Virus record (IMG/VR): IMGVR_UViG_3300042867_001289
Coordinates: 1 to 64,000 of that record
Strand: one strand, 5' to 3'
DNA: 64,000 nucleotides
DNA from: a virus
Both the position numbers and the translations under genes were made by a program. Shown here in pieces: positions 35,360-52,143 of this stretch (position 1 is the stretch's first letter; each line of letters starts with the position of its first letter). The notes below the pieces were generated by a model that was not told the DNA's origin, made no database searches, and saw only the letters and a program-made list of their open reading frames with translations.

Positions 35360-35583
35360 CACAAGCCCCGCCCCCAGTCTTACCCCTAAAATCTGACCCC
35401 TTTTGGTGGTTGGTGTGGTGGTTTGAAAGCCCCGTTCACCCCTGTCTGCCCCCTAAACTTTGACCCCTTTTGGTGGTGGTGGGAGCCCCGCCCCCTCTGT
35501 CCGCCCCCAAAATGTGTCCCCTTTTTGGTGGTTGTCGGGGCTGTGGGGTTGGGGAGGCCGTAGCCTCCCTTTCCCCTTTCGGG

Positions 35584-35697
35584 CTAGCGCCGCTCTTTCG
35601 ATTGGCGTGAGGCTTGGCCTCGGCGGTAGCCTCCGTCCCTGACCCCGTTGGGGGCCTCCCGTGCGGCTCGTGCCTCTTTGGCTTGTGCTTTCGTCAT
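35584..35697 (-). CDS. 37-aa basic peptide
   Basis: MTKAQAKEAR..GGYRRGQASRQSKERR; promoter, RBS, hairpin; paralog of 39550..39657. Confidence 0.75.
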   Translation of the reverse strand: MTKAQAKEARAAREAPNGVRDGGYRRGQASRQSKERR

Positions 35698-35749
35698 GCT
35701 GGCTCCTCTGCTAGGTGATGTACTCAATCTAGCCGATGGGCCATACCCT

Positions 35750-35921
35750 TGTCAAGTCAATACGACAAGTTTCTGTGATGCGATTCTAGGCCTGCAATCT
35801 CTTGACGGGTACGAGTACCGCCGACAACCGAGAACGCGCCTAGAACGCTCTTGTGGACGCTCTAGAGCGAACATCCGCCGACTGATTAGCCTCACAAACA
35901 ATCTGCAACAATGACTTGACA
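35750..35921. promoter_or_regulatory. Long-type divergent promoter spacer (copies at ~36626, 37615, 38512, 40174)
   Basis: TGTCAA..ACAAGTTTCTGTGATGCGATTCTAGGC..GAACGCGCC..GACTTGACA conserved in five copies. Confidence 0.85.
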
Positions 35922-35973
35922 AGGATATGGCCACCATGTAGTCTAAGTACATCACCTAGCGAAGGAGTACGAA

Positions 35974-36129
35974 GTGCACAACAGCCAATTTGACCGGGTC
36001 ATGCCGGGCGGAGGGTCCGACTGGGTCCACGCCGCCAACATGGCGGACGACCTAGCCGATGTCGATCACGACGACGACTACGACGACGACGACTACGACG
36101 AATGGCCGCCACGCCGAGAGGACTGGTGA
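35974..36129 (+). CDS. 51-aa very acidic peptide
   Basis: GTG after AAGGAG; ..DDDYDDDDYDEW..; hairpin follows. Confidence 0.75.
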   Translation: MHNSQFDRVMPGGGSDWVHAANMADDLADVDHDDDYDDDDYDEWPPRREDW

Positions 36130-36136
36130 GCCACCG

Positions 36137-36153
36137 GGGGCCGAAAGGCCCCC
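36137..36153 (+). terminator. GC hairpin terminator (representative of many copies)
   Basis: GGGGCC-GAAA-GGCCCC just after a stop; near-identical hairpins at ~37156, 38946, 39665, 40602, 42426, 44285, 47924. Confidence 0.75.
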
Positions 36154-36395
36154 ACCTTCCCCTTTTTTCCTTTGCGTCCCGCACACCCCAAACCCCCACC
36201 ACCCCAACGGGACCCCCAAACACACCACCCACACCCCTGGAAGCTATCCGAAAAGCACAAGCCCCGGCCCCCAGCCCTTCCCCCCAAACTTGTACCCCTT
36301 TTTGATGATTGGTCGGGGCTGTCGAATCAACGTGAGGTTTGCACTAGCGGGGCCGCGAGGCAAGGGTGGAAGGCTTGCGCCCCCCCCTTGCGGGC

Positions 36396-36572
36396 TTAGC
36401 CCCACAGCCCCCCTTCGTCCTCAGCGCGACCGACATGCTCGGAAACAGCCTCGTCGCAGCAGTCCTCGCAGAGCAGCTCCGGCCCTGCGACGGTGATGTG
36501 CGTCCAAGTGGCGTCTGCGCCGCAGACTTCGCACTCGTGCCACACATCTAGTAGGTGAGTAAAAACGGCCAT
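36396..36572 (-). CDS. Small acidic CxxC protein
   Basis: CEVC..CEDC; own promoter and RBS. Confidence 0.75.
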   Translation of the reverse strand: MAVFTHLLDVWHECEVCGADATWTHITVAGPELLCEDCCDEAVSEHVGRAEDEGGLWG

Positions 36573-36859
36573 TGTTGGCCCCTTTCGGTTGGTGAAACAC
36601 TGACAATACACCCTGCCGCCGAGGCTGTCAAGCCAATACGACAAGTTTCTGTGATGCGATTCTAGGCGTGCAATCTCTTGACGGGTACGGATGCACCCGA
36701 GAACCGAGAACGCGCCGGAAACGTCCTTGTGAGCGTCCTGAGAGCAATATCCCCTAGGCGCTCGCAGTCGGTACCCCTGAAATCGGCATGCAGTAATGAC
36801 TTGACAAGGGGACCGGCACCGTGTACAGTCAATGTTTCACCAACCGAAAGGGGCCGCAC

Positions 36860-37150
36860 ATGTGGCTAATAACTGATCCGTGGAAAGACCTGAACAAAGA
36901 GGGTCTGACCGCTTGGCAAGCGGCCCTGTCAAAGGACGCTTTCGAGAGAGTCGAAAGCGCTTTTAGGCAGGCGGACGGTCTCGGAATTCGCATCTACCGC
37001 GAACATGACGCGACAGACCGGCCAACGTACTATACGGGCCGCGGCAGTTACGAATATTTTGCGGAATTCGACAATTGCTGGATGAGAATCGAACCAGAGC
37101 GTGACGGCCTAGAGTTTAGGCAGAATATCTACGTCCACATGAAAGGTTGA
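36860..37150 (+). CDS. Hypothetical protein
   Basis: Own promoter, RBS, hairpin. Confidence 0.75.
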   Translation: MWLITDPWKDLNKEGLTAWQAALSKDAFERVESAFRQADGLGIRIYREHDATDRPTYYTGRGSYEYFAEFDNCWMRIEPERDGLEFRQNIYVHMKG

Positions 37151-37416
37151 GCGAAGGGGGCCGCAAGGCCCCCACACTCGCGCACCCTCGCATGCGTCCC
37201 GCTATGGGAACCAGGCACCTGGAACCAAAGAAACACAAGCCCCGCCCCCCAAACTCACCCCGAACCCTGACCCCCCCCTTCAGGAAAGGCAAGCCCCGTT
37301 CCCCCGAATCTTTCCCCCCAAAGTTTGTCCCCTTTTCTCAATTTCGGGGCTGCCGTGTTGAACGTGGAATCAAGTAGCGGGACGCCCTGAAGGGGGAGCC
37401 TTTCGGCCCCCCTAGC

Positions 37417-37563
37417 TCAGTCCTCCCATCCAAAGCGGGCGAGCCATTCCTCACGCTCACATTGGATCTCAGCTTGGTCATCAAGCTCAGCTTGGATTTC
37501 AGCTGCAAACTCGGTGTCAACCCAGTCTTGCCACTGTTGGGATAGGTTAGCTTCGATGGCCAT
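37417..37563 (-). CDS. 48-aa acidic peptide
   Basis: MAIEANLSQQWQDWVDTEF..GWED; not in track. Confidence 0.7.
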   Translation of the reverse strand: MAIEANLSQQWQDWVDTEFAAEIQAELDDQAEIQCEREEWLARFGWED

Positions 37564-37864
37564 TTCGGCCCCTTTCGTTGGTGAAACACTCAACCTACTG
37601 CATGGCGGTCACCCTGTCAAGTCATTAGAACAAATATCTCTGAGGCCGTTCTAGGCCGTTCTAGGCGGTCGATTGTCGGCCCGCTACCGATACCGCCAGA
37701 ATCGACGAACGCGCTCAGAACGCGCTCACAGTGGCCCTAGAACGAATATCCCCTAGACAGTCGGCAGTCGACAGAAAGAATTGAGATATCCCGTCTAATG
37801 GCTTGACAGACATTCTCCCATAGAGTATCGTCAGTGTTTCACCACAAAGAAAGGGGCCAACAAC

Positions 37865-38056
37865 ATGGCTTCAGAAGATATGGGATGGGCTGTCTGTGAA
37901 GTCTGCGAAAGCGGCACTACAGACTCGGTAGTCATCGACACCGGCGAGGACCTTGCAATAGCGTGCCGGTCATGCTGGTGGGACTACATCGATGTCGAAT
38001 TCATCGATGGAGACCTCGATGCGGAGCGGGAATACCTGCAAGGCAGAGGGTTCTAG
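37865..38056 (+). CDS. Small acidic CxxC protein
   Basis: CEVC..CRSC. Confidence 0.75.
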   Translation: MASEDMGWAVCEVCESGTTDSVVIDTGEDLAIACRSCWWDYIDVEFIDGDLDAEREYLQGRGF

Positions 38057-38323
38057 GACCAAAGGGGAGTGGGGCGCAAGCCTCACTCCCCAAAGTCGCG
38101 CCCACACTTCTCCGCCCCGCTACGAGAACCCCTGGAACCAAAGAAAAGCAAAGCCCCGGCCCCCCAATCCGCCCCCCAAAGCTGCACCCCTTTGGAAGCC
38201 CCGGCCCCAATCTTCCCCCCAAAAATTTGCACCCCTTTTTGGTGAGTATCGGGGCTTGTGGGTTTTTTGTAGCTGCCCCTTTCGGGACTGCTGGGGTTGG
38301 GGAGGCTTGCGCCCCCCCTTCCC

Positions 38324-38455
38324 TCAGTTCCACGGTGCGTTGCGTTCCGCAACCTCCTCGGCGCTCATCTCGTCCGAGATGTGTTGGTTCTTGACCAACT
38401 CCCACTCGGCCATCAGGATGGCATGAAACCTTGCGTCAACCTCTTCGTCAGACAC
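38324..38455 (-). CDS. 43-aa acidic peptide
   Basis: GTG start, MSDEEVDARF..APWN; not in track. Confidence 0.7.
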   Translation of the reverse strand: MSDEEVDARFHAILMAEWELVKNQHISDEMSAEEVAERNAPWN

Positions 38456-38740
38456 TTAGTGTCCCCTCTCTTTGTGGTGAGTACCTATTATGCACACACC
38501 TTGCCCCATCCTGTCAAGTCAATAGAACAAGTTTCTTTGAGGCCGTTCTAGGCGTGCAATCGGGAACCCGCTACAAGTACCGCCGAGAACCGAGAACGCG
38601 CCGGAAACGCGCTTGTGAGCGTTCTGGGCGCAATATCCCCTAGACACTTAGCCTCACAAATAAACCTGCAATAAAGACTTGACAAGGTAGGGGAAGGTGT
38701 GCGCATAATAGTGTCTCACCAAGCGACAAGGAGTTGCGCA

Positions 38741-38941
38741 ATGCATAACAACATAACCGCTCTAGCGTTGGCACTGAATCAGTGTGACCGCTGCGAAGAG
38801 TGGGTCCTAGAATCGCTCACTAGCGATTACAGCGGGGACGGGGAAGTGTGCGAGCTTTGCTACGACCAAAGCGTTGAGGACTCGCACGAATGGCAAGCAT
38901 TCTGCGACGACCACAGAAGGGGAGGCTGGACCACGGGATGA
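38741..38941 (+). CDS. Small acidic CxxC protein
   Basis: CDRC..CELC..DHRRGG; paralog of 44100..44279. Confidence 0.8.
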   Translation: MHNNITALALALNQCDRCEEWVLESLTSDYSGDGEVCELCYDQSVEDSHEWQAFCDDHRRGGWTTG

Positions 38942-39147
38942 GCAAAGGGGGCCGAAAGGCCCCCAAACCCGCGCACCGCCTTATGCGTCCCGCACCCAGA
39001 CTTCCACCAAAATAATCTCGGGGCTCACAAATATCAAACCCCTGGCGACCCGCTCATCACCAAAGCCCCGGCCCCCCGAAACCGATTTCTGAGACCTCCT
39101 CGGTTTCGGGACTGCGAAACCGGTGGAGGGCCGAAGCCCCCCCTTGC

Positions 39148-39378
39148 TCAGTTCCACGGTGCGGCAGCCTCAGCGGGCGGCAGCATCGCATCGCTAACGT
39201 GCGCACGCCTGCGTCGGGCAAGCTCAGCGGCAAGCTCAGCCGCTTCGACCTGACGAGTGGTCTCGGCAGCCTCAGCCGCCTCAAGCTCGGCAGCCTTGCG
39301 TAGCAAGGCCCTGACCATCACTGCAAGCCCTGCGAAGGCCACTGACCATTGCAGGATGAACGGTATCCAGTCTCTCAT
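39148..39378 (-). CDS. Small membrane-anchored protein
   Basis: N-terminal TM, Ala/Glu helix, ends APWN like 38324..38455. Confidence 0.7.
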   Translation of the reverse strand: MRDWIPFILQWSVAFAGLAVMVRALLRKAAELEAAEAAETTRQVEAAELAAELARRRRAHVSDAMLPPAEAAAPWN

Positions 39379-39430
39379 GGTAACTCCTGTCCGTTGGTGA
39401 AACCTCAAAGCTACAGCATGGCCGATACCC

Positions 39431-39494
39431 TGTCAAGTCAATGCTACGGGCAGCCTGAGAACGGTCTCAGCTTCAGCAGTCAACCGATTTGACA
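39431..39494. promoter_or_regulatory. Bidirectional promoter core with central CTGAG-N6-CTCAG palindrome (representative)
   Basis: TGTCAA-18-CTGAGAACGGTCTCAG-18-TTGACA; similar at 41258, 42153, 43098, 44009, 44835, 45905, 46769, 48784, 49982, 50836, 51689. Confidence 0.9.
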
Positions 39495-39549
39495 GGCCCC
39501 ATTGCATGGTGTAAGGTATACATATCACCAAGAGCAAGGGAGCCAAGCA

Positions 39550-39657
39550 ATGACAAAGTCAGAACGTCGGGAAGCCCGCCACCGCGACCAATCAGTTCGC
39601 TGGGGAGGTGGCTACCGGCGAGATCAAAAGTCTCGCCAGTCGAAAGAACGCCGATAG
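39550..39657 (+). CDS. 35-aa basic peptide
   Basis: MTKSERREAR..GGYRRDQKSRQSKERR. Confidence 0.75.
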   Translation: MTKSERREARHRDQSVRWGGGYRRDQKSRQSKERR

Positions 39658-39927
39658 CGGCGAGGGGGCCGAAAGGCCCCCACCTTCGCGTACCGCTTTA
39701 CCAGTCCCGCACCCAAACTCGCCCCCAGACCCACCCCCCCCTTTTTTTGTAACCTCGGGGCTCACCTGGCTATCAAAAGAGGGACAAGCCCCGACCCCCA
39801 AACTTTGCCCCCAAAATCTGCGCCCCCTTTTTTGCGAGGTGATCGGTTTCGGGGCTGCAAAATCAACGTGGAGTTGGACCAGCGGGGCCAACGGGAAGGG
39901 GGAGGCCGAAGCCCCCCCCTTTTCCGG

Positions 39928-40119
39928 CTACCACCATTTGGTGGGGTCGGTACCCAGTGGGTACCATGTGACCTCCGCAAACGGGATGGTGCCGCTAGAA
40001 CCGTCATCCGACCACACAACCGGTACTCCGATTGTTGGGTCGTCCAGATTGGTGATGAAGGCCGTAAGGCCGATCCTTCCCGACCTGTCGGCTACCTCTG
40101 TGTCGTTTCGGATGTGCAT
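39928..40119 (-). CDS. Small hypothetical protein
   Basis: Own promoter, RBS GAGGAG. Confidence 0.7.
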   Translation of the reverse strand: MHIRNDTEVADRSGRIGLTAFITNLDDPTIGVPVVWSDDGSSGTIPFAEVTWYPLGTDPTKWW

Positions 40120-40411
40120 GACTAACTCCTCATTGCTTGGTGAAACACTGAACTTACACCCTAGGGCCGAGGCTGTCAAGTCAATACAACAAGTTTCTGT
40201 GATGCGATTCTAGGCGTACAACCCCTTGACGGGTGCTAGCACCGCCAGAATCCGTAAACGTGCCTAGAACGCGCTCACAATGGCCCTAGCGGCAATACCC
40301 CCTAGACACTCGGCATCCTAGGCGGTCGGCAGTCGGCATGAAATAAAGACTTGACAAGGGTATGGGCAGGGTGTAAGGTAAGTACATCACCAAGCAGAGA
40401 GGGACCCGCAC

Positions 40412-40594
40412 ATGTGGGAAGTAATCAAGCACGCCCGTATCGAATGCCACGACTGTCAGTGCATGACAACCGTTGCCGATATGGGAACCATCTACCTAGG
40501 CTACACCTTCGAACTCGGCGGAGAGGAAATACAAGCCACCGCCTTCGCATGCAAGTCATGCCAATGGGACCGCTGGGAAGTGGAGTACGACTGA
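40412..40594 (+). CDS. Small CxxC protein
   Basis: CHDC..CKSC. Confidence 0.75.
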   Translation: MWEVIKHARIECHDCQCMTTVADMGTIYLGYTFELGGEEIQATAFACKSCQWDRWEVEYD

Positions 40595-40783
40595 GACAAC
40601 GGGGGCCGAAAGGCCCCCACAGTCGCGCCCGCACTCGCATGCGTCCCGCACCCTGGAACCAGGAACAAAACAAACAACAGCCCCGCCCCCCAGTCTCACC
40701 CCAAAACCCTGGCCCCTTTTCAGAAATCTCGGGGCTCACAAACATTGTCATTCCACGCCCCAGCGGGACCCGGAAGGGGAGGG

Positions 40784-40876
40784 TCAGTCCTTCCACTTCC
40801 TGACCCACCGCTCGTTCCAGAGTGCCAGCGCACCCATACTCACTGCCCATCCTGTAGCTATTGCTAGGTATGTCAT
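40784..40876 (-). CDS. 30-aa membrane peptide
   Basis: Own promoter and RBS; single TM. Confidence 0.6.
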   Translation of the reverse strand: MTYLAIATGWAVSMGALALWNERWVRKWKD

Positions 40877-40973
40877 TGCTTGGCTCCTGTTCCTTGGTGA
40901 AACACTATTGTACCATACACCTTGCACCTTGTCAAGTCGAAAGGCGAGTGACCGTAGCCACCCGCCTAACAAC

Positions 40974-41183
40974 TCACTCAGCTAACGCCGGTTCTCCCGA
41001 CATTTTTCGCATAACCGCTGTCAGCCGCTCGTATGCGTCGATCAACTCTAGCCCCTGCTCCGGGCTGTAGTTCACGTTGCTCCCGTCCTGTAGCTGCACT
41101 GCCATAAGCTCAGTCGCTTCGATAATAAGCTCCGAAGCTCTGAAGCACTTCTGGAGTGCCGTCCAGTCTTTCTTCTGGTCCAT
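40974..41183 (-). CDS. Small hypothetical protein
   Basis: Own promoter and leader. Confidence 0.7.
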   Translation of the reverse strand: MDQKKDWTALQKCFRASELIIEATELMAVQLQDGSNVNYSPEQGLELIDAYERLTAVMRKMSGEPALAE

Positions 41184-41349
41184 GATGACCTTTCTTTGTA
41201 GGTGAAACACTATTCTTGCACACTGCAGGGCACAATGCAAATCGTGCTACAGGCAACCTGAGAGGCCCCTCAGACAACCCGCACGGTGGAATTGACAAAC
41301 TGCACCCTACATGCAATACTAGTGTTTCACCAACCAGCAAGGAGCCACA

Positions 41350-41469
41350 ATGGACAACGACAATTCAGACAATGACGACCTCACCACCTCAGAGATCGAA
41401 GAGATGTTACTCGTCATTGAAATGTTCAAAGAAATCGAAGCGGGAACCCCACCCGCACGAACCGAGTAA
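41350..41469 (+). CDS. 39-aa acidic peptide
   Basis: MDNDNSDNDDLTTSEIEEML..; hairpin GGGCCACCC-GCAA-GGGTGGCCC. Confidence 0.7.
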   Translation: MDNDNSDNDDLTTSEIEEMLLVIEMFKEIEAGTPPARTE

Positions 41470-41518
41470 CAGAAAGGGCCACCCGCAAGGGTGGCCCTTC
41501 TGCCCATCCACGGGACTA

Positions 41519-41779
41519 TCAGATAGTAACAACATTCCCAGGCGGGACTAACGCAACACGATGAGTCTCAACCCAACGCTCACCAGTCCCGGCAACAGGA
41601 GTCACCAACAGGTCAAGATGCCCGAAGCGAAGCCGTGCCTCGACAACGTTGACAGAAATCTGCAGGTCTTCCATCTTCATGACGCCTGACATGCCCCGCA
41701 AGGCTGCGATGTCTTCGGCGGTGATCTTCTTGTTATCGCCGTGTTCGTCCCGGGTTGAAAAGATTGTTCTTGTTGACAT
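41519..41779 (-). CDS. Small hypothetical protein
   Basis: Own promoter, RBS AGGAG. Confidence 0.7.
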   Translation of the reverse strand: MSTRTIFSTRDEHGDNKKITAEDIAALRGMSGVMKMEDLQISVNVVEARLRFGHLDLLVTPVAGTGERWVETHRVALVPPGNVVTI

Positions 41780-41909
41780 TTGTTCTCCTAATAGTTGGTA
41801 GGTCTGTACCTTACAGGGTGTTGGTGGCTGTGTCAAATCGGTGGTATCGAACTTGGGATCAGCTGTCGGGACTGCGGAGAGAGGGAGGGCTTTCGCCCCC
41901 CCCTCAGGG

Positions 41910-42074
41910 TCACTCTGAGCGGAACCCCTCTTCTTGCGAGATTTCACATCGCCAGTCCCAGATCAGGCGCTCTTTCTCAAGCTTGGCGGCTCTCGTCATC
42001 TCGTCGATGCGATCCTGCCACTCTTGGTATCCTCCCTGAACCCACAGGGCCGACAGTTCTAGTTCGTTTAGCAT
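41910..42074 (-). CDS. 54-aa hypothetical protein
   Basis: MLNELELSALWVQGG..; not in track. Confidence 0.65.
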   Translation of the reverse strand: MLNELELSALWVQGGYQEWQDRIDEMTRAAKLEKERLIWDWRCEISQEEGFRSE

Positions 42075-42243
42075 TTCGTCCTCCTCGGACTTGTTGGTGA
42101 AACACTATTATTGCACACTGTACGGCGCAATGCAAATCGGATCATCGGCAACCTGAGAACAGTCTCAGGGAACCCATACGGTAAGCTTGACAGACTGCAC
42201 CCTGTATGGCATACTGGAGTCTCACCAACGAACAGGAGCAGTT

Positions 42244-42414
42244 ATGAATGACCTAGATATGATGATGGCGCTATGCGGCCAGCCAACAGCCGCAGAGACC
42301 GCACAAGAAGCACTGAGCTTCCTGCTCGTGGCTTGCGCAGTCGCAGGGCCAGCAAACAACGAGGAGCTAATCCTCGCAGCAAACATGCTCGCTGACGCAA
42401 TCAACAACCTCTAA
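42244..42414 (+). CDS. Small helical protein
   Basis: Own promoter, RBS, hairpin. Confidence 0.7.
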   Translation: MNDLDMMMALCGQPTAAETAQEALSFLLVACAVAGPANNEELILAANMLADAINNL

Positions 42415-42476
42415 GCGACAAGGGGGGGGGCCGCAAGGCCTCCCCCTTTTGCGCGCACCCACTTCTGCGTCCCGCC

Positions 42477-42707
42477 CTAGAAAAGCGTTTCCGTTTGCGG
42501 CGGGGCCTTCAACTTCTTCAACATCATACAAGTCTTACACATCCACCCCATCGGGGCTGTCGGCAAAGCCACAGCGTGAGCGCCACCGCCCTTACGGTTC
42601 TCAACCCAGCCAGTCACCTTCTTCCAGGTGCCCCGCTCTTTGGGGTTGATTTCCATTCCGCATTCTTCGCAAGTAAATAGTGGTGGGAGTCCCGATGTGT
42701 TTTTCAT
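42477..42707 (-). CDS. Small basic CxxC protein, probably leaderless
   Basis: CEEC..CKTC; TTGACT..TACAAT just upstream. Confidence 0.7.
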   Translation of the reverse strand: MKNTSGLPPLFTCEECGMEINPKERGTWKKVTGWVENRKGGGAHAVALPTAPMGWMCKTCMMLKKLKAPPQTETLF

Positions 42708-42802
42708 ACTTGGAATTGTACCAGCCCCAAACCCGTAAGTCAAGGATATATTTGAGCGTGGCGGGACGCATGAGAGGGGGGAGGGTCTCGCCCTCCCCTG
42801 TC

Positions 42803-43021: not shown

Positions 43022-43188
43022 TGCACTGCCTTTCATTAGGTGATGACACTAGTATGGCATACACCTTACACCTTGTCAAATGCTAGCTGAGAACATCCTG
43101 AGAACGCCCTCAGACAAACCATACGGTGCATTTGACAGATTGCACCCTACATGGCATACTAGTGTTTCACCAAACGACAGGAGTTACA

Positions 43189-44759: not shown

Positions 44760-44924
44760 TGGTAGGGCCTTTCGTTAGGTGAGATACCATTATGGCATGT
44801 ACCCTGCACCTTGTCAAGTGTTGTCTGTGAGCGACTGAGGATTATCTCAGGTTGCCATGGCATGGGCTTGACAGACTGCACCCTATAGGGCATAATAGTG
44901 TTTCACCAACAAGAAAGGCCCACC

Positions 44925-45086
44925 ATGGAAACCTACTACGAATACGAAGAGGATCAGTACCTCGCCGAACATGTCGACTGGATGGACGACTACGAAAGCG
45001 AAACACGCGACGAAGATGACTACGAAGAGTGGTGCTACGACTACTGCGAACAACGGGAGCCGGATGGCGACTGGGAATGCGACTGA
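44925..45086 (+). CDS. 53-aa extremely acidic, aromatic-rich peptide
   Basis: METYYEYEEDQYLAEHVDWMDDYESE.. Confidence 0.75.
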   Translation: METYYEYEEDQYLAEHVDWMDDYESETRDEDDYEEWCYDYCEQREPDGDWECD

Positions 45087-45423
45087 GTCAACGGGGGGAC
45101 TTCGGTCCCCCCAACCCAACCAAAGGAGGAAACGTAAAAAACGCCGCCGACTGGCGGAGAACAGACTGCGAGTCCACACCGGAAATTGACCTACCGGGGC
45201 TTCACGCCGAAACGGGGATGTGGCGCACAATGGAGTTCAACCAGTCACCAGGGGGCCGCAAGGCCCCCACTTTTCTATTCCCCAGCCCCGCTGAATCTTT
45301 CACACAAATCTGTTCACGGGGCTAAATAGCAAAAGCCTTTCGGCCCCCTGCACCGGTCACCACCAGTGCAGGGGAAGGGACTCGCTTCACAACAGCGGGT
45401 GAAGCAGAGCCCCGCCTGACCCC

Positions 45424-45639
45424 TTAGCTCTTGGCTAAGAGGTCACGGATATGGTCAGAGTTCGCAGGTGGAACTTCGTTGAACCCGTTCCCCTCTGTCT
45501 GATACAGGATGCGAGTAATTTCGTGGTGAAGGTAATCTGCGATTACTTGCGCAGCCTTTGGGTTATCTGGCAGTAGAGACTCTATGGCCTCATTGCCTAG
45601 GGTTACTAGGTTGATTATGTTTCGGGCTGGAGTTGCCAT
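45424..45639 (-). CDS. Small hypothetical protein
   Basis: Own promoter and leader. Confidence 0.7.
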   Translation of the reverse strand: MATPARNIINLVTLGNEAIESLLPDNPKAAQVIADYLHHEITRILYQTEGNGFNEVPPANSDHIRDLLAKS

Positions 45640-45996
45640 GTTTGTTCTTTCTGTTAGGTGATGAGTGTAAGTGTACACCCTAGGTGATGTCTTGTCAAGT
45701 TGTTGCGGGTCGCGCCCCTATGCCTAGGAACACAACCCGCCTACCGTACCGTCAAGCCCTGCAAATAGGCTCAAGAGGCTATAAAGCAATATAGACTCGA
45801 TTAGTACGAACCCCTCACTATTGCTTTGCACACAAACGGTGAGGTAACAACGAACACTATTATTGCACACTATAGGCCACAACGCAAATCACGCTACAAG
45901 CAACCTGAGAGAGTTCTTAGACAACTCACGCAGTGGAGTTGACAGACTGCAAGGTGTATGGCATACTAGTGTTTCACCAACGAACAGGAGAAACAA

Positions 45997-46233
45997 ATGA
46001 TAGACATCAAAATTTGCTCAGACTGCGCAATGTGGGTAGCCAACCTCGATGACTCAGCAGTCGACAATGACGACAGAGGCAACGAGTACCGCCAACGCCG
46101 TGACGAAGGCCTAGAGTCCTTCAGCGGCTGCGTTGTGGTCAATATGGACGACGACGGCTACGGCTTCACTCATAACGGCTGCGACATATGCGGCCAGACT
46201 GGTCACCACGGCATCAGCGCCACAGTGTTCTGA
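45997..46233 (+). CDS. Small acidic CxxC protein
   Basis: CSDC..CDIC. Confidence 0.75.
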   Translation: MIDIKICSDCAMWVANLDDSAVDNDDRGNEYRQRRDEGLESFSGCVVVNMDDDGYGFTHNGCDICGQTGHHGISATVF

Positions 46234-46403
46234 GAGAACGGGAGAGGGGCGAAAGCCTCCCTCCCACTTTCTCGCGCCCACGGGACCCCCGCCACCCCCG
46301 ACAACCGGCACGCCCCGCACACAACAAAAGTCAAGTCCACTCAACAAAAGTCAAGCAACGGGGCCAGCAAGCTGGGGAAGGCCGTAGCCCTCCCCTTGCT
46401 CAC

Positions 46404-46691
46404 TCACCAGCCTCTCACGACTATCGAACCGTCACCGACTTCGACGACCGTTGTGTTGTGTCCTAGTTCTTCTAGGCTGTCGATCTCGTGGCCGGTGTCT
46501 TCAACGTACTCCTCAAAAGAGTCGTAGACGGCATAATCGCAGCGAAAACCAATGGGATCTAGTTCGATCCCTGGCTCATCAGCGAAGGTGTCTTCTAGGT
46601 AGTTGAAGAAGGCCACCGCTGCGTTGTAGGGCCAGTCAGCGAATTGCCGCATGGCTTGAGCGAAGTCTGATTCTGAAACTGTCTGATACAT
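46404..46691 (-). CDS. Acidic MYQ-family protein (paralog 1)
   Basis: MYQTVSESDFAQ..IELDPIGFRC. Confidence 0.8.
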   Translation of the reverse strand: MYQTVSESDFAQAMRQFADWPYNAAVAFFNYLEDTFADEPGIELDPIGFRCDYAVYDSFEEYVEDTGHEIDSLEELGHNTTVVEVGDGSIVVRGW

Positions 46692-46858
46692 GTTGACTCT
46701 TTCTGTTAGGTGATAGGTACAACTATATAGGCTAGGTTGCTTGCCGTCAAATTGACTATAAGAGTTTCCTGAGAGCCGACTCAGCCTCACTCTAGCTACC
46801 GCTTGACAAGGTGCAACCTACATGGCATAATAGAGTTTCACCAACAAGGGAGCCACCA

Positions 46859-46978
46859 ATGAATGCAAATTTGATCAACATCGACTGGGTAAACCAGTTC
46901 AGCGCAGTTCAACAGTTCGGAGCAGGACTAATCATAGCGTCCACAATCCTCTCAATCGACTGGCTAAGAAAGCGGTAA
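46859..46978 (+). CDS. 39-aa membrane peptide
   Basis: Own promoter, RBS, hairpin; not in track. Confidence 0.6.
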   Translation: MNANLINIDWVNQFSAVQQFGAGLIIASTILSIDWLRKR

Positions 46979-47170
46979 CCGGAAGGGGGCGCAAGCCCTC
47001 TGTTCCCGCACGCCCCGCCACCCCAAACCCCTGGTCTCAGCAACGGGGCTCACCCACATCTTCCAGATAGCCACCTCACACATTTCAGGTAGCTACGTCC
47101 CGCCCGGATTGTTTGAACCTGGGCTATCGGGGCTGACGAAGCGGGAGAGGCCGAAGCCCCTCCCAGTCGC

Positions 47171-47479
47171 TCACCATTCTTGGACGACGATTGAACCGTC
47201 TCCAACCTCTAGAACTAGGGTGTGTTCTGCTAGTTCTTCGATGTTGGCGACGTTGTCGTGGCCGTAGTCGCTCTTGTAAGCGTCGAAACTAGCGTGGACA
47301 CTGTAGGCACACCGGAAGGCGATGGGGTCTAGTTCGACCCCTGTGTCACCTTGACCGTAGCCAACTTCCCCGGCTACCTCTTCGATGTAGTCGAAGAGTA
47401 CAACCGAGGCGCTATAGGGCCAGTCTGCGAATTCTCGCATGACTTGGGCAAAGTCTGATTCTGTTACGTTCTGGTACAT
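47171..47479 (-). CDS. Acidic MYQ-family protein (paralog 2)
   Basis: MYQNVTESDFAQ..VELDPIAFRC. Confidence 0.8.
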   Translation of the reverse strand: MYQNVTESDFAQVMREFADWPYSASVVLFDYIEEVAGEVGYGQGDTGVELDPIAFRCAYSVHASFDAYKSDYGHDNVANIEELAEHTLVLEVGDGSIVVQEW

Positions 47480-47702
47480 GTTGGCTCTTTCTGTTAGGTG
47501 ATAAGTGCAACTATACTTGACAGGTGCCACCCTGTCAAATTTAGGTGCATGAAACCTGAAGCCTTTCTCAGTTTGTTCTCTGTTCGTGACCTCCGAAACA
47601 GAGAACAGATTAGCTAAGAGCGTTCTCAGCTAGCCGACACGAAGACTTGACGCCTTGCACCCTATAAGCTACAATGATGTTTCACCTAACGAAAGGCAAA
47701 CA

Positions 47703-47918
47703 ATGAACCTAGACAAAGAAATATGGGAAGGGTGGACAGTCGCCGACTACGTCGGAGAACTTGAACCACTATTTGACATGATCATGAGCAACGGATCATG
47801 GCAGAAACCCTTCACCTCAAAGGCGCAAGTCAAAGAATGGTGCATGGACAACCAGCCCGGATACAAAAAGAACATCCCAGACGTCGTCAACTACCTCTGG
47901 GGGAAAACCTGCAACTAG
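47703..47918 (+). CDS. Small hypothetical protein
   Basis: IWEGWTV..WCMDNQPGYKK. Confidence 0.75.
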   Translation: MNLDKEIWEGWTVADYVGELEPLFDMIMSNGSWQKPFTSKAQVKEWCMDNQPGYKKNIPDVVNYLWGKTCN

Positions 47919-48149
47919 CAGGCGGGGGCCGCAAGGCCCCCACCTTCTTACGCCCACGGGACTCACACCCCAAGCGACAAACACGACAGCCCCGCCGAAA
48001 CATTCGGACAGGGCTTACTGCGGGACTCATGGTGAAATGAGGGAGCAGGTGGGGAGGCTCACCACAACCGTCCCCACCGCTTCACCTCGTTAGCAGGCTA
48101 TCACCTCGAAGAGGTCTTGTGTGACTTCTCCTGGTAGCCCCGCTAAGGC

Positions 48150-48422
48150 TTAGATGTTATTCTCTTCCTCGCAAAGGGTTACTAAAATGGCATCTTCGTC
48201 TGCCTTTTCGTAGTATCCCATAATGTCTATGCCACCTGAGTCGATGAATCCTGTTTCCTCGATCCATGCAGGTGCTTCATATCTAAGACTTTCCCAGCGA
48301 TAACCGGTGCTGCGGGCTGCCTCTTCGATCCAAAGGACCATCTGGGAAACAGCATCTTCTGGGTTGGCTGCATCAAACTTACATGACACGCTTACTGTGT
48401 ATTCTTCAAGTTCTTCGTTCAT
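48150..48422 (-). CDS. Small acidic protein
   Basis: Own promoter and RBS. Confidence 0.7.
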   Translation of the reverse strand: MNEELEEYTVSVSCKFDAANPEDAVSQMVLWIEEAARSTGYRWESLRYEAPAWIEETGFIDSGGIDIMGYYEKADEDAILVTLCEEENNI

Positions 48423-48499
48423 CGTGTGGCTCCTTGTGTTGGTTGGTGTGTAATCATTGTAGCAGGCACCTGACAGCTTGTCAAGTACCTGCTACGGAA

Positions 48500-48706
48500 T
48501 TACTTCCTTCTCTCAGCAAGCTCGTCACGAACGGCTGCCCAATTTTCCTGAGCTTCACGAACGGCTGCACGCTCAGCATCGACGATGTCCTGAGCGTTCC
48601 TGATACGAACGTAGGACGCTTCGATACGACGCTCTAAAACGCCTTCAGTGTATTCCAGCTCATCGGTTGTAGAATCTGCAATTCTACTCTCAAAGAATGT
48701 ACTCAT
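48500..48706 (-). CDS. Small coiled-coil protein
   Basis: Own promoter. Confidence 0.7.
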   Translation of the reverse strand: MSTFFESRIADSTTDELEYTEGVLERRIEASYVRIRNAQDIVDAERAAVREAQENWAAVRDELAERRK

Positions 48707-48874
48707 TGTTTCTTCTCTCTGCTAGGTGGTAGGTGTAACTATACACGGCACCCGCCTACCAGTCAAATCGACGTACTCGCATCCTGAGAAATCGCTCAGA
48801 TTCTCAAGCAGTGGAGTTGACAGCTTGCACATTGCATGGCATACTAGTGTTTCACCTAGCAGAGAGAAGAAACA

Positions 48875-49165
48875 ATGTACCAACTAGTTGGAGAATCCGA
48901 CTTCGCACAATCCATGAGAACCTACGCAGGCTGGTCATACTCAGCCTCATGCGCGTTCTTCTGGTTCATGGAAGATAACGACAGCACAATCGACGGCTTC
49001 GGGATCGAACTTGATCCCATCGGCCTACGATGCGAGTTCAGCGTCTACGCAGACTTTGACGCTTACGCAGAGTGCTATCCATCTATGGCCACGCTGGACG
49101 ACCTGAGGGAGAGCACCCTAGTCATCGAAGCAGATGACGGCTCTCTGGTCGTGCAAGACATCTAA
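48875..49165 (+). CDS. Acidic MYQ-family protein (paralog 3)
   Basis: MYQLVGESDFAQ..IELDPIGLRC. Confidence 0.8.
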   Translation: MYQLVGESDFAQSMRTYAGWSYSASCAFFWFMEDNDSTIDGFGIELDPIGLRCEFSVYADFDAYAECYPSMATLDDLRESTLVIEADDGSLVVQDI

Positions 49166-49274
49166 GCGATTAGGGGACAGGCTCCGGCTTGTCCCCTTTT
49201 CTGCTGTAAAGACTTGACAAGCAGTGTACAACCATGTACAATAAGAACCATCACCTAGCAGAAAGAAGCAAACA

Positions 49275-49553
49275 ATGGCAATCACCATTAGCAGTAACGG
49301 ATACAGTGTCGGCGACCAAGTCGGCGACTCCCTAGCCTTCCTAGAACAATTCTGGCCAGCACTAGCAAAGCCAATCCTACTCAACCTGCCAGCATACGAC
49401 CCCGAACTACCGGGCTACGATGACGAAGCACTTGACTGGATCATCGCAGACATCGAAGCGACCGACAAGGTTCGCTGGATCGAAGGCGAACCATGGGGAG
49501 TAATCCCAGCCGGGAACCTCGAATACCGACTCTGGAACTGGGAAGAGGAGTGA
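49275..49553 (+). CDS. Small acidic protein
   Basis: TTGACA..TACAAT promoter. Confidence 0.7.
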   Translation: MAITISSNGYSVGDQVGDSLAFLEQFWPALAKPILLNLPAYDPELPGYDDEALDWIIADIEATDKVRWIEGEPWGVIPAGNLEYRLWNWEEE

Positions 49554-49691
49554 GGTGAGGGGCTCCGGCCCTTCCCCCAGTCCCGCTACCCGTTTTCCTG
49601 AACAACCAGGGCGGGGCTAAGCACGCTTTTGCACGCTTTTTGTGGGTACATATGCAGAACCGTGCCCAAATAGGCACGGTTCTGCTACCGA

Positions 49692-49904
49692 TTAGCTGTC
49701 GGCGATAGGTGCCGGTGTAGTGCTAATTGTCTGGTACTTGGATGGGGCGACGCGAACGTCGTTAGCTACGGATAGGACATCCCAGCCAAGTTGCTCGTCT
49801 AGCGTCTCAGCAGCGATCTTGATGGCTACAGCATCGTCGTCGCAGGTTGCCCAAGTCTCAAGGATGAAGTCATCCCCGTAGAAGGTTACTGTCTTGTTTT
49901 CCAT
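49692..49904 (-). CDS. Small acidic protein
   Basis: Own promoter. Confidence 0.7.
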   Translation of the reverse strand: MENKTVTFYGDDFILETWATCDDDAVAIKIAAETLDEQLGWDVLSVANDVRVAPSKYQTISTTPAPIADS

Positions 49905-50072
49905 GTTGGCTCTTTCCTGTTAGGTGGTAGTTGTAACTATACTAGCTAGGCAACCTGCTGTCAACCTTTACTACAGACAAGCTGTGAGCGTTCTCAGCAT
50001 TCATGACGCAAGACTTGACACTGTGGCCTGCAGGGTATAAGGTAGTGTTTCACCAACCAATAAGGAGCCACG

Positions 50073-50258
50073 ATGGCAAAGCAGAAGAAAACCAAACAAT
50101 CCACACGAACAGCCGAGATCGTTCTCGCAATCCGCACCCAAGCACATGAGCAGTACGTCGACGCACTTCGCGACGGTCGCCGCCAACGTGCCGCAACCTA
50201 CCCAGACCGCCGCAAGGTGGCAAACAAGAAGGCTTGTCGCAGGTCAGCATACAGCTGA
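50073..50258 (+). CDS. Small basic protein
   Basis: Lys/Arg-rich; own promoter and RBS. Confidence 0.7.
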   Translation: MAKQKKTKQSTRTAEIVLAIRTQAHEQYVDALRDGRRQRAATYPDRRKVANKKACRRSAYS

Positions 50259-50426
50259 CCTAGCGGCTAAGCCGCTTGCACCAGTCCCGCCTGGGCCACC
50301 AGGGATCTAGGCTGCCGGGGCTAAAAGCTTTTTGCTTCTCTGACCATCGGGGCTAAGGAGCAATTTTTGGTCCCTGGCTATCGGGGCTAAAGGCGCAGGA
50401 GGGGCCGAAGCCCCCCCCACAACCTG

Positions 50427-50756
50427 TTAGCCATATACCACCTCAGTGAAGCAGGCCACCTGAACAATCAGGTCTGCAAGGTCTGCGTCGATGTCGCCAG
50501 CCTCGTTCTCACGAACAGCAACAGCGATCTTATTGACGACCACGGGGTGGATGCCGCTAGTGTCTCCACCGATAATCTGCTCAATCGCTTCCTGCACGTC
50601 CGTTGGCGTGATTGGGTAGCGTTGGCCATCTTCCATGTCGTGGAAAGTGGCGTGAGTGTTCTCATCGGCGTGCGAGTAATCGTCCACTTCCGCCCAGTAG
50701 TTACTGCCACCTTCGGCGGCTGTGACGATGATGTCGGATAGGAATTGTGTGTCCAT
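50427..50756 (-). CDS. Acidic conserved phage protein
   Basis: AAEGGSNYWA..DIDADLADLIVQVACFTEVVYG. Confidence 0.8.
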   Translation of the reverse strand: MDTQFLSDIIVTAAEGGSNYWAEVDDYSHADENTHATFHDMEDGQRYPITPTDVQEAIEQIIGGDTSGIHPVVVNKIAVAVRENEAGDIDADLADLIVQVACFTEVVYG

Positions 50757-50926
50757 TGCTTGGCTCCTTGTGTTGGTTGGTATGTAGTCATTGTAGGGTA
50801 TAGAACGTATCCTGTCAAGCCTTGTCACAGGAAGCCTGATAACGCTCTCAGAATGCCTGACACATATACTTGACAAGATGCTTTAGGTAAAGTACTATGA
50901 GTACACATCAACGAACAAGGAGCCAC

Positions 50927-51253
50927 ATGAGATCCCTACAAGACCTACTAAAATTGTTACGAGGCCTACCAGAGGTCGCAAACCTGCAAGATGCATTCAC
51001 GTTGCTAGACCGTTCTATCGTAACGATAACGGAATACGAACAGCTTGAAAGCGAATGTAGACGCAGAGCCAGAGAACTCAAGTTCTGTCTTGACTCCCTC
51101 GGAATCAAATACGAATCCGCCTGGGGAGAACATCACTCTTGGTCAGTCTACCTAGCCACCAACGACTGCACCGTGAAAGGTGCACCCCTAACAGGACCAG
51201 TCATCGCAGACTGCCGAGCATCCCAGCTAATGACAAGCTTCAGTCGAATCTAG
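50927..51253 (+). CDS. Hypothetical protein
   Basis: Own promoter and RBS. Confidence 0.7.
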   Translation: MRSLQDLLKLLRGLPEVANLQDAFTLLDRSIVTITEYEQLESECRRRARELKFCLDSLGIKYESAWGEHHSWSVYLATNDCTVKGAPLTGPVIADCRASQLMTSFSRI

Positions 51254-51397
51254 CGAGGGTCCGTCCGAAAGGGCGGGCTCTTCACCAGCCCCGGACGCCC
51301 AATGCTGTAGCGGGACTATCGTATGCCCTGGTCGCACGATGAGGCTGGCAGGCCCCGCTTCGGGCGGGGAGGCTTGGGGGCCGAAGCCCCCGTTGCC

Positions 51398-51610
51398 TTA
51401 CCAGCCGACACCTTGTCGCCCTGCCGCTATGCGATCCTCGTAGATCTCGTGGATGCTCATGATCCAGTCAAACGCTTCTGCGATGTCACGAGCGTCTTTG
51501 CAGTGTTCCCAGACTTGTTCGTCTTCCCAGCACTCGTCGATGACTGAGCAGCTTCCGCTGCCGATGATCTGGTTTCCTCGGATGAATTTGATTAGCTCTT
51601 GCTTGTCCAT
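51398..51610 (-). CDS. Small hypothetical protein
   Basis: GSGSCSVIDECWEDE. Confidence 0.75.
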   Translation of the reverse strand: MDKQELIKFIRGNQIIGSGSCSVIDECWEDEQVWEHCKDARDIAEAFDWIMSIHEIYEDRIAAGRQGVGW

Positions 51611-51780
51611 TGCTTTCCTCTTTCTTGTAGGTGATAGGTGTAACTGTACATGGTAACGGCCTGCCAGTCAAATCGTTGCACAAGAACCCTGTGGACGCTA
51701 TCAGGTTTCCGAGCAGTGGGGTTGACACAGTGTAGCTTGTATGGCATAATAAATAGACATCAACCAACAGGAGCTAAACA

Positions 51781-52143
51781 ATGAGAATCAACGACACATG
51801 GCGAGACGTAAACTCGGGAACGGTAATCGACCGCATTGCCGAACTGGGAGCGATCAGTCTTGCCGACGCAGATGAGAACGACTCAATCGAACTGGCAGAA
51901 CTACAGAATCTCGATCAACAAGGACGCGAGATTGTGGGCTGGGCCGAAGGCTACGTCATGCTAATCAAGGACGGCTACATGGAAGACCACGCTCAAGAGC
52001 GAGCAGAAGAAGAGGGCAAAATTAGCTTCAACGAGTGGCCAGCAACGGCCATTGACTGGCATCAAGCAGCAGAAGAACTCAAGTTCTCCTACGGCTACAT
52101 CCCAGTCGACTTTTTCAACAGCACCTACTGGGTCGTCAAGTAA
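51781..52143 (+). CDS. Acidic protein resembling the ArdA antirestriction C-terminal region
   Basis: EDHAQERAEE.G..WP..AIDWHQAAEEL..Y. Confidence 0.55.
   Translation: MRINDTWRDVNSGTVIDRIAELGAISLADADENDSIELAELQNLDQQGREIVGWAEGYVMLIKDGYMEDHAQERAEEEGKISFNEWPATAIDWHQAAEELKFSYGYIPVDFFNSTYWVVK

Follow-up and report, generated by a model that had tools for sequence, protein, structure and literature searches.

What is a run of some forty small genes, each behind its own promoter and facing alternately left and right, doing in the genome of a large phage, and do the repeated non-coding parts between these genes serve to exchange them? The question is raised by a 17-kb array in IMG/VR virus record IMGVR_UViG_3300042867_001289, a linear record of 128,048 bp (CheckV completeness 87%, without recognised end repeats), whose first 64 kb (64,000 nucleotides) are called the window here. 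An initial annotation of this DNA had interpreted the array as a modular platform in which cargo genes are exchanged or inverted by recombination between the repeats of a conserved scaffold. The array is probably the immediate-early (host-takeover/anti-defence) region of a large lytic-type freshwater actinophage, composed of standard regulatory parts and subject to slow recombination similar to that of the promoter-early stem-loop (PeSL) cassettes of T4-type phages. Its extent is as follows.

35360-52205, both strands: whole array, with ~42 promoters, 18 head-to-head pairs and 41 promoter-led small open reading frames (ORFs)

The promoter array and its head-to-head modules

The array could be delimited by a single strict promoter-leader pattern, TTGACN-N15-19-NANNNT-N3-10-[TC]CACC, which has 32 matches in the whole record, 32 of 32 lying between 35,714 and 52,205, and each of which is followed by a ribosome-binding site (RBS) and a start codon 16-21 nt past the CACC box. 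When 34.5-53 kb was scanned for generic sigma-70 promoters, 41 sites were found, compared to 8.6 +/- 3.5 in 50 shuffles. The curated list of 42 promoters combines the 32 strict matches with 10 others from the generic scan or from inverted repeats, which carry a TTTGCA -35 box or lack the CACC box; the ORFs and these 10 of the 42 promoters were called by our own heuristics, not by a trained gene caller. Most array promoters have a perfect TTGACA -35 box, and their density is about 1 per 400 bp (42 in 16.5 kb). The coding fraction of 35,364-52,143 is 51%, and that of the first 5.4 kb is 39%; phage genomes are normally ~90% coding.

The orientation of successive promoters switches at 35 of 41 steps, a value that was reached by 0 of 100,000 permutations (mean 20.95, sd 3.18). 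Alternation is strict in the first 13 promoters (35,755-40,935), and 18 divergent, back-to-back pairs were counted. The ~0.9-kb repeat unit is real, because successive '+' promoters are mostly 801-1071 bp apart. The description in the initial annotation of about 18 bidirectional cassettes with a unit of this length, alternating strictly and then nearly so and carrying ~42 cargo ORFs, was therefore accurate; the cargo amounts to 41 promoter-led ORFs (30-170 amino acids (aa), median 70) and one possible second gene within 41,519-41,909.

The head-to-head pairs fall into modules of different geometry, in which the distance between the two -35 boxes is 50-52 bp in 12 pairs, 108 bp in one and 160-182 bp in five. 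The modules are listed here, all bidirectional.

35698-35973: module 1, long class (-35 boxes at 35755 and 35916, 160 bp apart)
36573-36859: module 2, long class (169 bp)
37564-37864: module 3, long class (182 bp)
38456-38740: module 4, long class (161 bp)
39379-39549: module 5, compact (52 bp between -35 boxes; palindrome 39455-39470)
40120-40411: module 6, long class (171 bp)
41184-41349: module 7, compact (palindrome 41258-41273; left -35 is TTTGCA)
42075-42243: module 8, compact (palindrome 42153-42168)
43022-43188: module 9, compact (palindrome 43098-43113)
43933-44099: module 10, compact (palindrome 44009-44024)
44760-44924: module 11, compact (palindrome 44835-44850)
45724-45996: module 12, compact (variant palindrome 45905-45920); left promoter at ~45887 without a convincing ORF
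46692-46858: module 13, compact (palindrome 46769-46784)
47480-47702: module 14, intermediate (108 bp between -35 boxes)
48707-48874: module 15, compact (palindrome 48784-48799; exact inverted repeat of 25 bp made up of the two leaders)
49905-50072: module 16, compact (degenerate palindrome)
50757-50926: module 17, compact
51611-51780: module 18, compact

In the compact class, the two start codons are 165-171 bp apart in all 11 modules measured, and the similarity between modules collapses exactly at both of them. A palindrome of the type CTGAG-N6-CTCAG is central in 12 of 12 compact modules, exact in 8 and with one or two mismatches in the others. This 16-bp element is placed centrally between the two -35 boxes, with 17-18 bp on either side, and precedes the presumed start site of each arm by ~62 bp; of its 9 exact copies in the genome, 8 are centred in compact modules. 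We infer that the palindrome is an operator, likely for one dimeric regulator acting on both arms. The long-class spacer has a distinct conserved sequence with an imperfect inverted repeat, for which covariation was found in 2 of 19 pairs only.

Two observations can be added here. The ninth exact palindrome is outside the array, at 56593-56608 of the window and 28 bp upstream of a GP88-like gene (56636-57556), which may be under the control of the same factor as the array palindromes. At 45724-45890 (-), the array-type promoter of the TTTGCA -35 class near 45,887 precedes no convincing ORF; the predicted transcript, with a hairpin and a T-rich tail, is a possible small RNA.

Cargo genes and tail-to-tail modules

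The cargo genes, numbered c01 to c41 from left to right, are given with their strands.

35584-35697 (-): c01, 37 aa, basic (pI 11.6), paralogue of c10
35974-36129 (+): c02, 51 aa, Asp-rich, acidic; N- and C-termini identical in the related contig G001
36396-36572 (-): c03, 58 aa, CxxC...CxxC, acidic
36860-37150 (+): c04, 96 aa
37417-37563 (-): c05, 48 aa, acidic
37865-38056 (+): c06, 63 aa, CxxC...CxxC
38324-38455 (-): c07, 43 aa, acidic
38741-38941 (+): c08, 66 aa, CxxC; paralogue of c22 (51% identity)
39148-39378 (-): c09, 76 aa, hydrophobic N-terminus
39550-39657 (+): c10, 35 aa, basic; opposite-strand paralogue of c01
39928-40119 (-): c11, 63 aa
40412-40594 (+): c12, 60 aa, CxxC
40784-40935 (-): c13, 30 aa, hydrophobic, with solo promoter (40896-40935)
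40974-41183 (-): c14, 69 aa
41350-41469 (+): c15, 39 aa, acidic; hairpin at 41474-41499
41910-42074 (-): c16, 54 aa; possible second gene downstream in 41519-41909
42244-42414 (+): c17, 56 aa
42466-42770 (-): c18 unit, 76 aa, basic, CxxC; ORF 42477-42707, own leaderless-type promoter (42743)
42803-43021 (-): c19, 72 aa
43189-43401 (+): c20, 70 aa, Trp-rich, acidic
43654-43932 (-): c21, 92 aa
44100-44279 (+): c22, 59 aa, CxxC; paralogue of c08
44427-44759 (-): c23, 110 aa
44925-45086 (+): c24, 53 aa, very acidic (Asp/Glu/Tyr)
45424-45698 (-): c25, 71 aa, with solo promoter (45657-45698)
45997-46233 (+): c26, 78 aa, Cys-rich
46404-46691 (-): c27, 95 aa, phrog_9974 family; paralogue of c29 and c33
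46859-46978 (+): c28, 39 aa, hydrophobic
47171-47479 (-): c29, 102 aa, paralogue of c27 (54% identity)
47703-47918 (+): c30, 71 aa; hairpin at 47924-47941
48150-48484 (-): c31, 90 aa, with solo promoter (48456-48484)
48500-48706 (-): c32, 68 aa
48875-49165 (+): c33, 96 aa, opposite-strand paralogue of c27 and c29, different leader
49214-49553 (+): c34, 92 aa, with solo promoter
49692-49904 (-): c35, 70 aa
50073-50258 (+): c36, 61 aa, basic (pI 11.0)
50427-50756 (-): c37, 109 aa, phrog_2355
50927-51253 (+): c38, 108 aa
51398-51610 (-): c39, 70 aa
51781-52143 (+): c40, 120 aa, phrog_25535; weak anti-restriction match (phrog_2059, E 0.0018)
52163-52736 (+): c41, 170 aa, Api92-like DUF1281_C domain, with the last array-type promoter

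The cargo ORFs behave as genes, because the G+C contents at their first and second codon positions (GC1/GC2 of 0.59/0.41, compared to 0.59/0.42 in large phage genes) form a coding pattern that is lost in the +1 frame, because the paralogues diverge as if under purifying selection (c27 vs c29, pN/pS 0.24/0.61), and because the termini of c02 are kept in G001. The predicted proteins are mostly acidic, with a pI below 5 in 30 of 41 and a basic character in 6, and paired CxxC motifs occur in seven. Pfam provides one solid domain among the 41 (DUF1281_C in c41); PHROGs provides 13 member-family matches to 11 families, with no known function except the weak anti-restriction match of c40, and searches of PDB sequences with c40, the c27 family and c37 gave nothing meaningful. 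In its acidic, CxxC-bearing and orphan character, the cargo looks like early small proteins. Paralogues in both orientations, as the initial annotation had noted, are found in c01(-)/c10(+) and in c27(-) and c29(-) vs c33(+); the further sets are c08/c22 and a weak CxxC group. The cargo is compositionally and phylogenetically heterogeneous, because its third-position G+C content (GC3) of 0.615 differs from the 0.416 of 15 large genes of the window and because homologues sit in unrelated phages, weakly for c29 in Microcystis phages and for c37 in Streptomyces and Achromobacter phages.

Two cargo genes have local peculiarities. The low-complexity GAC (Asp) run of c02, at 36046-36111, attracts unrelated metagenome contigs, with a depth of 3627 in one run; it is the cause of a depth peak at 35.8-36.4 kb in metagenome run X8 and of loose ends at 36,06x and 36,10x, which mimic breakpoints. 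At 42466-42770, a perfect 11-bp inverted repeat encloses the c18 gene together with its separate promoter, which is without the array leader; one arm of this repeat is the GCGTCCCGC box described below.

Where units converge, a common tail-to-tail layout is found in the gaps at 35.3-40.8 kb and in one at 43.4-43.7 kb. It consists, in order, of a + strand hairpin, a GCGTCCCGC box, a C-tract element, which is G-quadruplex (G4)-capable, in an AGCCCCG...CGGGGCT stem, and a - strand hairpin, and four of the eight gaps are 266-270 bp long.

35360-35583 (+): tail module 0, three tandem C-tract (G4-capable) elements and a hairpin, downstream of the L5-gp82-like gene
36130-36395 (+): tail-to-tail module, 266 bp, with + hairpin, GCGTCCCGC box, C-tract/G4 element in the AGCCCCG...CGGGGCT stem and - hairpin
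37151-37416 (+): tail-to-tail module, 266 bp, two C-tract elements
38057-38323 (+): tail-to-tail module, 267 bp, two C-tract elements
38942-39147 (+): tail-to-tail module, 206 bp, degenerate
39658-39927 (+): tail-to-tail module, 270 bp, C-tract element
40595-40783 (+): tail-to-tail module, 189 bp, C-tract element
43402-43653 (+): tail-to-tail module, 252 bp, last C-tract element of the array

The hairpins that had been placed at the unit ends are indeed there: the + strand hairpin GGGGGCCGNAAGGCCCCC has seven copies in a single orientation throughout, and other GC hairpins close most units. With a stringent motif (four tracts of C4 or longer, loops of at most 12), 13 C-tract elements were found in the genome; the 12 that lie at 35.3-43.6 kb have their C-tracts on the + strand without exception, and none has the opposite polarity. 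The conserved C-rich spacer of the initial annotation is thus real at 35.3-43.6 kb, but it is absent from most of 41-52 kb, and two thirds of the array lack these elements. When the minus-strand transcript was folded with ViennaRNA with G-quadruplex energies on, the minimum-energy fold contained a G-quadruplex in 6 of 7 elements, and an Rfam search found nothing in the array above chance. The tail-to-tail module could serve as an insulator of converging units. The only stringent C-tract motif outside the array, at 22598-22631, is made of CCCCC(C)TA repeats, and the same region in G001 has three tandem '+' promoters.

Possible turnover at the scaffold and the competing explanations

The initial annotation had contrasted a conserved scaffold with unrelated cargo, and this contrast holds: the repeats that make up the scaffold have diverged and stop precisely at the start codons, unrelated cargo stands behind near-identical modules, and most cargo pairs have no similarity. 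Paralogous cargo, in turn, is found behind different promoter/leader subtypes and on both strands. The relative G001, a 97.5-kb contig with a terminase 97% identical, is collinear with the window over 19.5-35.4 kb and ends 1.1 kb into the array. Here 35,424-35,777 of the window, with two C-tract copies, a hairpin, c01 and its promoter, is replaced by 525 bp in which the repeats and the hairpin are different, the ORF is an unrelated one with CxxC, and the promoter belongs to the type seen at 36,591 of the window. Identity remains at ~80% across the spacer, the rightward promoter, c02 and the following tail module. The breakpoints of the replacement are in the C-tract repeat and in the inter-promoter spacer, both of them scaffold repeats. 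The swapped cargo expected between relatives was seen as one replaced leftward cassette.

A second line of evidence comes from the modules themselves. In a pairwise homoplasy index (PHI) test of 11 compact modules with 121 informative sites, neighbouring sites were more compatible than permuted ones in windows of 5, 10 and 15 (observed 0.65-0.72 vs 0.79), and 0 of 2000 permutations gave a value as low. This result fits left and right arms with different histories, and hence mosaic modules. Global-alignment identity of modules and cargo was uninformative (shuffled baseline 0.58). Also counted in favour of recombination at these parts were the cargo homologues in Microcystis, Streptomyces and Achromobacter phages, the GC3 contrast between cargo and large genes, and the contigs of G001 and of a second relative, G002, which break off where their arrays begin. 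The recombination genes invoked in the initial annotation are present to the left of the array.

17624-18337 (+): Rad52-family annealing protein, a homologous-recombination pair with the PD-(D/E)XK nuclease
18334-19119 (+): PD-(D/E)XK nuclease, the partner of the Rad52-family protein
24286-24924 (+): RuvC-like resolvase

On these grounds, the following course of events can be proposed for an immediate-early region. On phage entry, the host SigA polymerase would recognise the ~42 near-consensus promoters, each arm supplying a -35 box, a -10 box, a leader with the TCACC box, an RBS and an ATG and yielding one monocistronic message, and ~41 small, usually acidic proteins would appear together. 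One dimer at the central palindrome would switch both arms, hence the whole set, which would most plausibly be shut off at the early-to-middle transition. The candidate effectors at the palindrome would be the four phage WhiB proteins or basic cargo proteins; WhiB-like proteins bind SigA region 4. The GC hairpins would end the units, and in the first third the ~266-bp polar C-tract module would separate converging ones. The repeated parts would provide portable homology, between which the Rad52-type protein and nuclease, or a host system, could recombine, and units would be duplicated, lost or replaced over evolutionary time, as in T4-type PeSLs. This pathway would make the turnover a matter of slow genome evolution, not of a programmed shuffling device.

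PeSLs are known from the T4-type myoviruses RB49, phi1, PST and nt-1 (Arbiol et al. 2010, PMC2839356; Comeau et al. 2014, PMC4122927). They number 52 and 51 per genome, with crossovers between the -10 box, the Shine-Dalgarno (SD) sequence and the start codon, and mini-circles are found at about 1 in 10^5 virions (PMC2839356); recombination between repeated promoter/terminator cassettes is thus already described for T4-type phages (PMC2839356, PMC4122927). The present array is similar in its many strong sigma-70-like early promoters (here predicted) ending in an SD sequence and a start codon, its GC stem-loop terminators, its region of small orphan genes and its presumed reliance on homologous rather than site-specific recombination. 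PeSLs are also known for insertions, deletions and replacements between close relatives, with crossovers in the repeated motif; the slot-1 leftward cassette of G001 is the one such case here, and the mosaic arms agree with it. RB49 has 8 PeSLs in ~5 kb, and the array has 42 promoters in 16.5 kb. Judged from sequence, the array has the repeated promoter with SD and start codon and the ORFan region of a PeSL locus; the fused stem-loop and the T4-type carrier are lacking. Part of it has polar G-quadruplex-capable elements, and the phage is an unrelated actinophage, not T4-type. The array is closest to PeSL cassettes and is not a new class of mobile-element machinery.

Several points weigh against this interpretation. 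The stem-loop and promoter form one motif in the PeSLs described, the stem-loop being inside, overlapping or directly upstream of the promoter, whereas the hairpins of the array follow the stop codons at the far gene end, in tail-to-tail gaps, and an opposite-strand gene stands between them and the next promoter, and PeSLs are mostly located ahead of co-directional ORFans, whereas the array has a symmetric bidirectional promoter, a central palindrome and alternating orientation. G001 is the only close relative reaching the array, and the evidence for exchange comes from this one relative and ~1.3 kb; the PHI signal can be inflated by alignment error in short diverged sequences. The scaffold repeats are 70-88% alike, with longest exact runs of 34 bp direct and 26 bp inverted, which is marginal for efficient homologous recombination. 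Metagenome run X7, which was not flagged as a possible source, has 0 differences and the same order over 39,308-42,648, 43,681-47,162 and 47,573-50,213; over such stretches of 2.6-3.5 kb, this identity means that any turnover is slow. Promoters so near to the consensus should need no activator, and a site near -62 is unusual for a repressor; moreover, no regulator for the palindrome emerged when 20 ORFs nearby were searched with Pfam, ParB_N being the only DNA-binding domain among them. Finally, promoter activity and early timing are deduced from sequence features.

The most serious competitor is a static regulon, in which tandem duplication of a ~0.9-kb unit was followed by selection on the scaffold and by divergence, insertion or de novo birth of cargo, the repeats having no role in turnover. 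Such a history could account for whole bidirectional modules being direct repeats rather than inverted copies of single promoters, for the age of the repeats (70-88% identity), for the identical order in the independent run X7 and for the lack of credible rearrangement joints. It does not readily explain why conservation within subfamilies extends to positions that have no evident function (the 17-bp promoter spacers and the palindrome flanks, for example), why left and right arms assort independently, why both G001 breakpoints fall inside scaffold repeats, and why most cargo pairs have no similarity at all while the adjoining scaffold is ~70-85% alike. We regard the static regulon as unlikely, although it deserves more credit than any other alternative.

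A bolder form of exchange, for which we see a slimmer chance again, would make the array an insulated 'expression breadboard'. Its fixed 165-171-bp and ~266-bp modules would be slots, small foreign or newborn genes would be captured by Rad52-type annealing, one palindrome-binding factor would serve two dozen or more promoters, and the polar elements, in G-quadruplex/i-motif form, would give a direction to replication, exonuclease attack, read-through or a similar DNA process.

It is improbable that the DNA or RNA itself is the main product, the 42 promoters serving to shut off the host by titrating its SigA polymerase, or else to act on supercoiling or entry, and the ORFs being secondary. The extreme promoter density (~1 per 400 bp), the coding fraction of only 51% (39% in the first 5.4 kb), the perfect TTGACA of most promoters and the strictly polar C-tract elements, which suggest a directional DNA process, would suit such a device; but a good RBS and an ORF follow each strict promoter at a constant distance, the paralogues are under purifying selection, c02 is kept in G001, and homologues of part of the cargo occur in other phages.

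A programmed site-specific cassette system of the integron, shufflon or invertase kind, with C-tract elements or palindromes as recombination sites, is disfavoured still more strongly. The array is similar to an integron in being a row of small unrelated exchangeable genes between repeated structured elements of fixed polarity; these polar elements, bracketed by inverted repeats at regular intervals, the inverted repeat around c18 and its promoter, and the paralogues on both strands could speak for such a system. Against it, the record (87% complete) has 0 matches to the tyrosine and serine recombinase families PF00589 (Phage_integrase) and PF00239 (Resolvase), in keeping with the absence of a visible integrase in the initial annotation; in a control search, PF00589 matched in 14 of 14 control genomes. 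An integron identity was rejected on the 0 PF00589 matches in 128 kb, the promoter-bearing cassettes and the 35 orientation changes in 41 steps; unlike integrons, the array has its own promoter for each gene, alternating orientation and polar elements in one third only, being without them in the other two thirds. An invertase or shufflon identity was likewise rejected, as both families gave 0 matches and the contigs of four metagenome runs contain no strand-changing joint. The inversion part of the proposed exchange platform is thus not supported; the modular exchange part is partly supported by the G001 cassette and the mosaic arms, with no sign of active or programmed exchange.

Six joints in run X19 were considered as rearrangements and rejected: each is in one contig with a short side of 22-42 nt, most are in C-tract repeats, and the minimum likeness of 88 is in the range of repeat artefacts. 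The parts of the array that lack cover in X19 are likewise no evidence of rearrangement. This run contains a ~90-99% variant, whose identity varies piece by piece along the array, and 71% of the contig sequence placed from it continues into unlike sequence, which fits mosaicism beyond the resolution of contigs. An assembly artefact, in the form of a collapsed or chimeric repeat region, would fit the repeat-rich stretch and the breaking of relatives' contigs at the array, but it is hardly credible given that X7 Logan contigs cover three array stretches with 0 differences, that runs X8 and X12 give further identical pieces, and that 7 runs hold at least 92% of sampled words.

Other systems, relatives and genome context

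The host-takeover module of the Bacillus phage SPO1 (24 genes, gp37-60) is another comparison: it also consists of compact small early genes of unknown ancestry that use the primary-sigma polymerase, and several of its proteins act on the host polymerase, nucleoid or division (PMC10531801). Small, putatively early genes under strong predicted primary-sigma promoters are also what the array contains. However, no sequence similarity between the two was found, nor was a PHROG or Pfam link between cargo and SPO1 genes seen; the SPO1 module is in a terminal redundancy, whereas the present record is a linear fragment without recognised end repeats; and what is available of its description does not present it as strictly alternating monocistronic units with shared operators (PMC10531801).

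Related arrays were sought in several collections. Megablast of the array against 50,697 phage records gave no match. In IMG/VR, the promoter-plus-leader pattern gave 55 single matches, of which only the G001 locus is related, the bidirectional-module pattern gave 0 matches, and the C-tract-element pattern was found in G001 only; a longer promoter-plus-leader pattern gave 5 single matches in JGI metagenome contigs, none of them related by blastn. Searches for related loci with the c27 family and with the GP88-like gene gave no relatives, and c41 gave distant loci only (at most 40% identity). This promoter family is absent from the assembled parts of four long contigs related by terminase (72-75% identity). 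The absence of the array motifs from other IMG/VR and JGI contigs is weak evidence, because relatives' contigs tend to break at such arrays; G001 and G002, a relative with 72% terminase identity, both stop just past the first divergent promoter pair. Among the collections scanned, the fixed-geometry bidirectional promoter with its putative central operator (a dozen copies), the near-strict alternation, the ~266-bp polar quadruplex-capable tail module and the very low coding density appear specific to this genome and partly to G001. The Streptomyces phage Gilgamesh, which has the nearest cultured portal (37%), was rejected as a comparator, as the first 50 kb of its genome are ordinary co-directional gene blocks.

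The host is almost certainly an actinobacterium, because the record has four WhiB-family genes (27049-27258 (-) and 30322-30507 (-) in the window; 66100-66288 and 111638-111838 in the whole record) and a gene similar to mycobacteriophage L5 gp82, which ends at 35,359 directly ahead of the array, and because the closest cultured portals are those of Streptomyces, Brevibacterium and Gordonia phages (37-41% identity). Among the 14 control genomes, the WhiB family matched only Corynebacterium. The TANNNT-type -10 boxes of the array and its many hairpins without a U-tract/T-tract were also counted toward such a host; terminators without a T-tract are common in actinobacteria. The portal and terminase are closest to actinophage proteins, which does not place the phage among T4-type myoviruses, and the GP88 and L5-gp82-like families are both found in the record. 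The phage DNA is listed in 24 lake-water metagenome runs. Among freshwater actinophages, a group with several whiB genes has been described (PMC10914622).

If the interpretation as an immediate-early region holds, the array would offer a very clear case, from a natural phage, of gene expression designed in modules, with half of 17 kb made up of two kinds of non-coding module of fixed length that frame ~41 microprotein genes. It would extend the PeSL idea of regulatory repeats as recombination linkers from T4-type coliphages to freshwater actinophages, in a bidirectional, operator-bearing form. Acidic orphan proteins of this kind often prove to inhibit host defence, the polymerase or nucleoid proteins, and for lake Actinobacteria, which are abundant and hard to culture, the cargo would supply a set of candidates for host takeover. 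Candidate parts would include a 170-bp bidirectional actinobacterial promoter, a shared operator and a polar G-quadruplex insulator.

The large ORFs to the left of the array encode a portal, a protease/capsid fusion and a terminase in addition to the three recombination proteins, and Api92-like, GP88-like and primase/helicase genes are to its right. In G+C content, the array (52-59%) exceeds the structural region (43-50%). A histone-deacetylase-domain gene and a dual-specificity phosphatase-like gene, both unusual auxiliary genes for a phage, are adjacent at 30788-32238 (-), just to the left of the array, and a gene for a ParB N-terminal-domain protein (25308-26093 (+)) lies between the RuvC-like and dCMP-deaminase-like genes.

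Repeated promoters were also seen in other phages. Three IMG/VR loci with an Api92-like gene that came from the c41 search (L161, L164 and L166; 32% GC) belong to unrelated phages and have 20-25 consensus extended -10 promoters per 15-20 kb, mostly co-directional and with a GGGTA box ahead. A relative with 74% terminase identity (L175, G003 69000-88775) has its own repeated promoter-plus-leader family at intervals of 1.5-4 kb, with a TGACACACCC spacer, a TGATAYACT -10 box and a conserved leader whose end, ahead of the ATG, reads AAAGGAGTAAAA.

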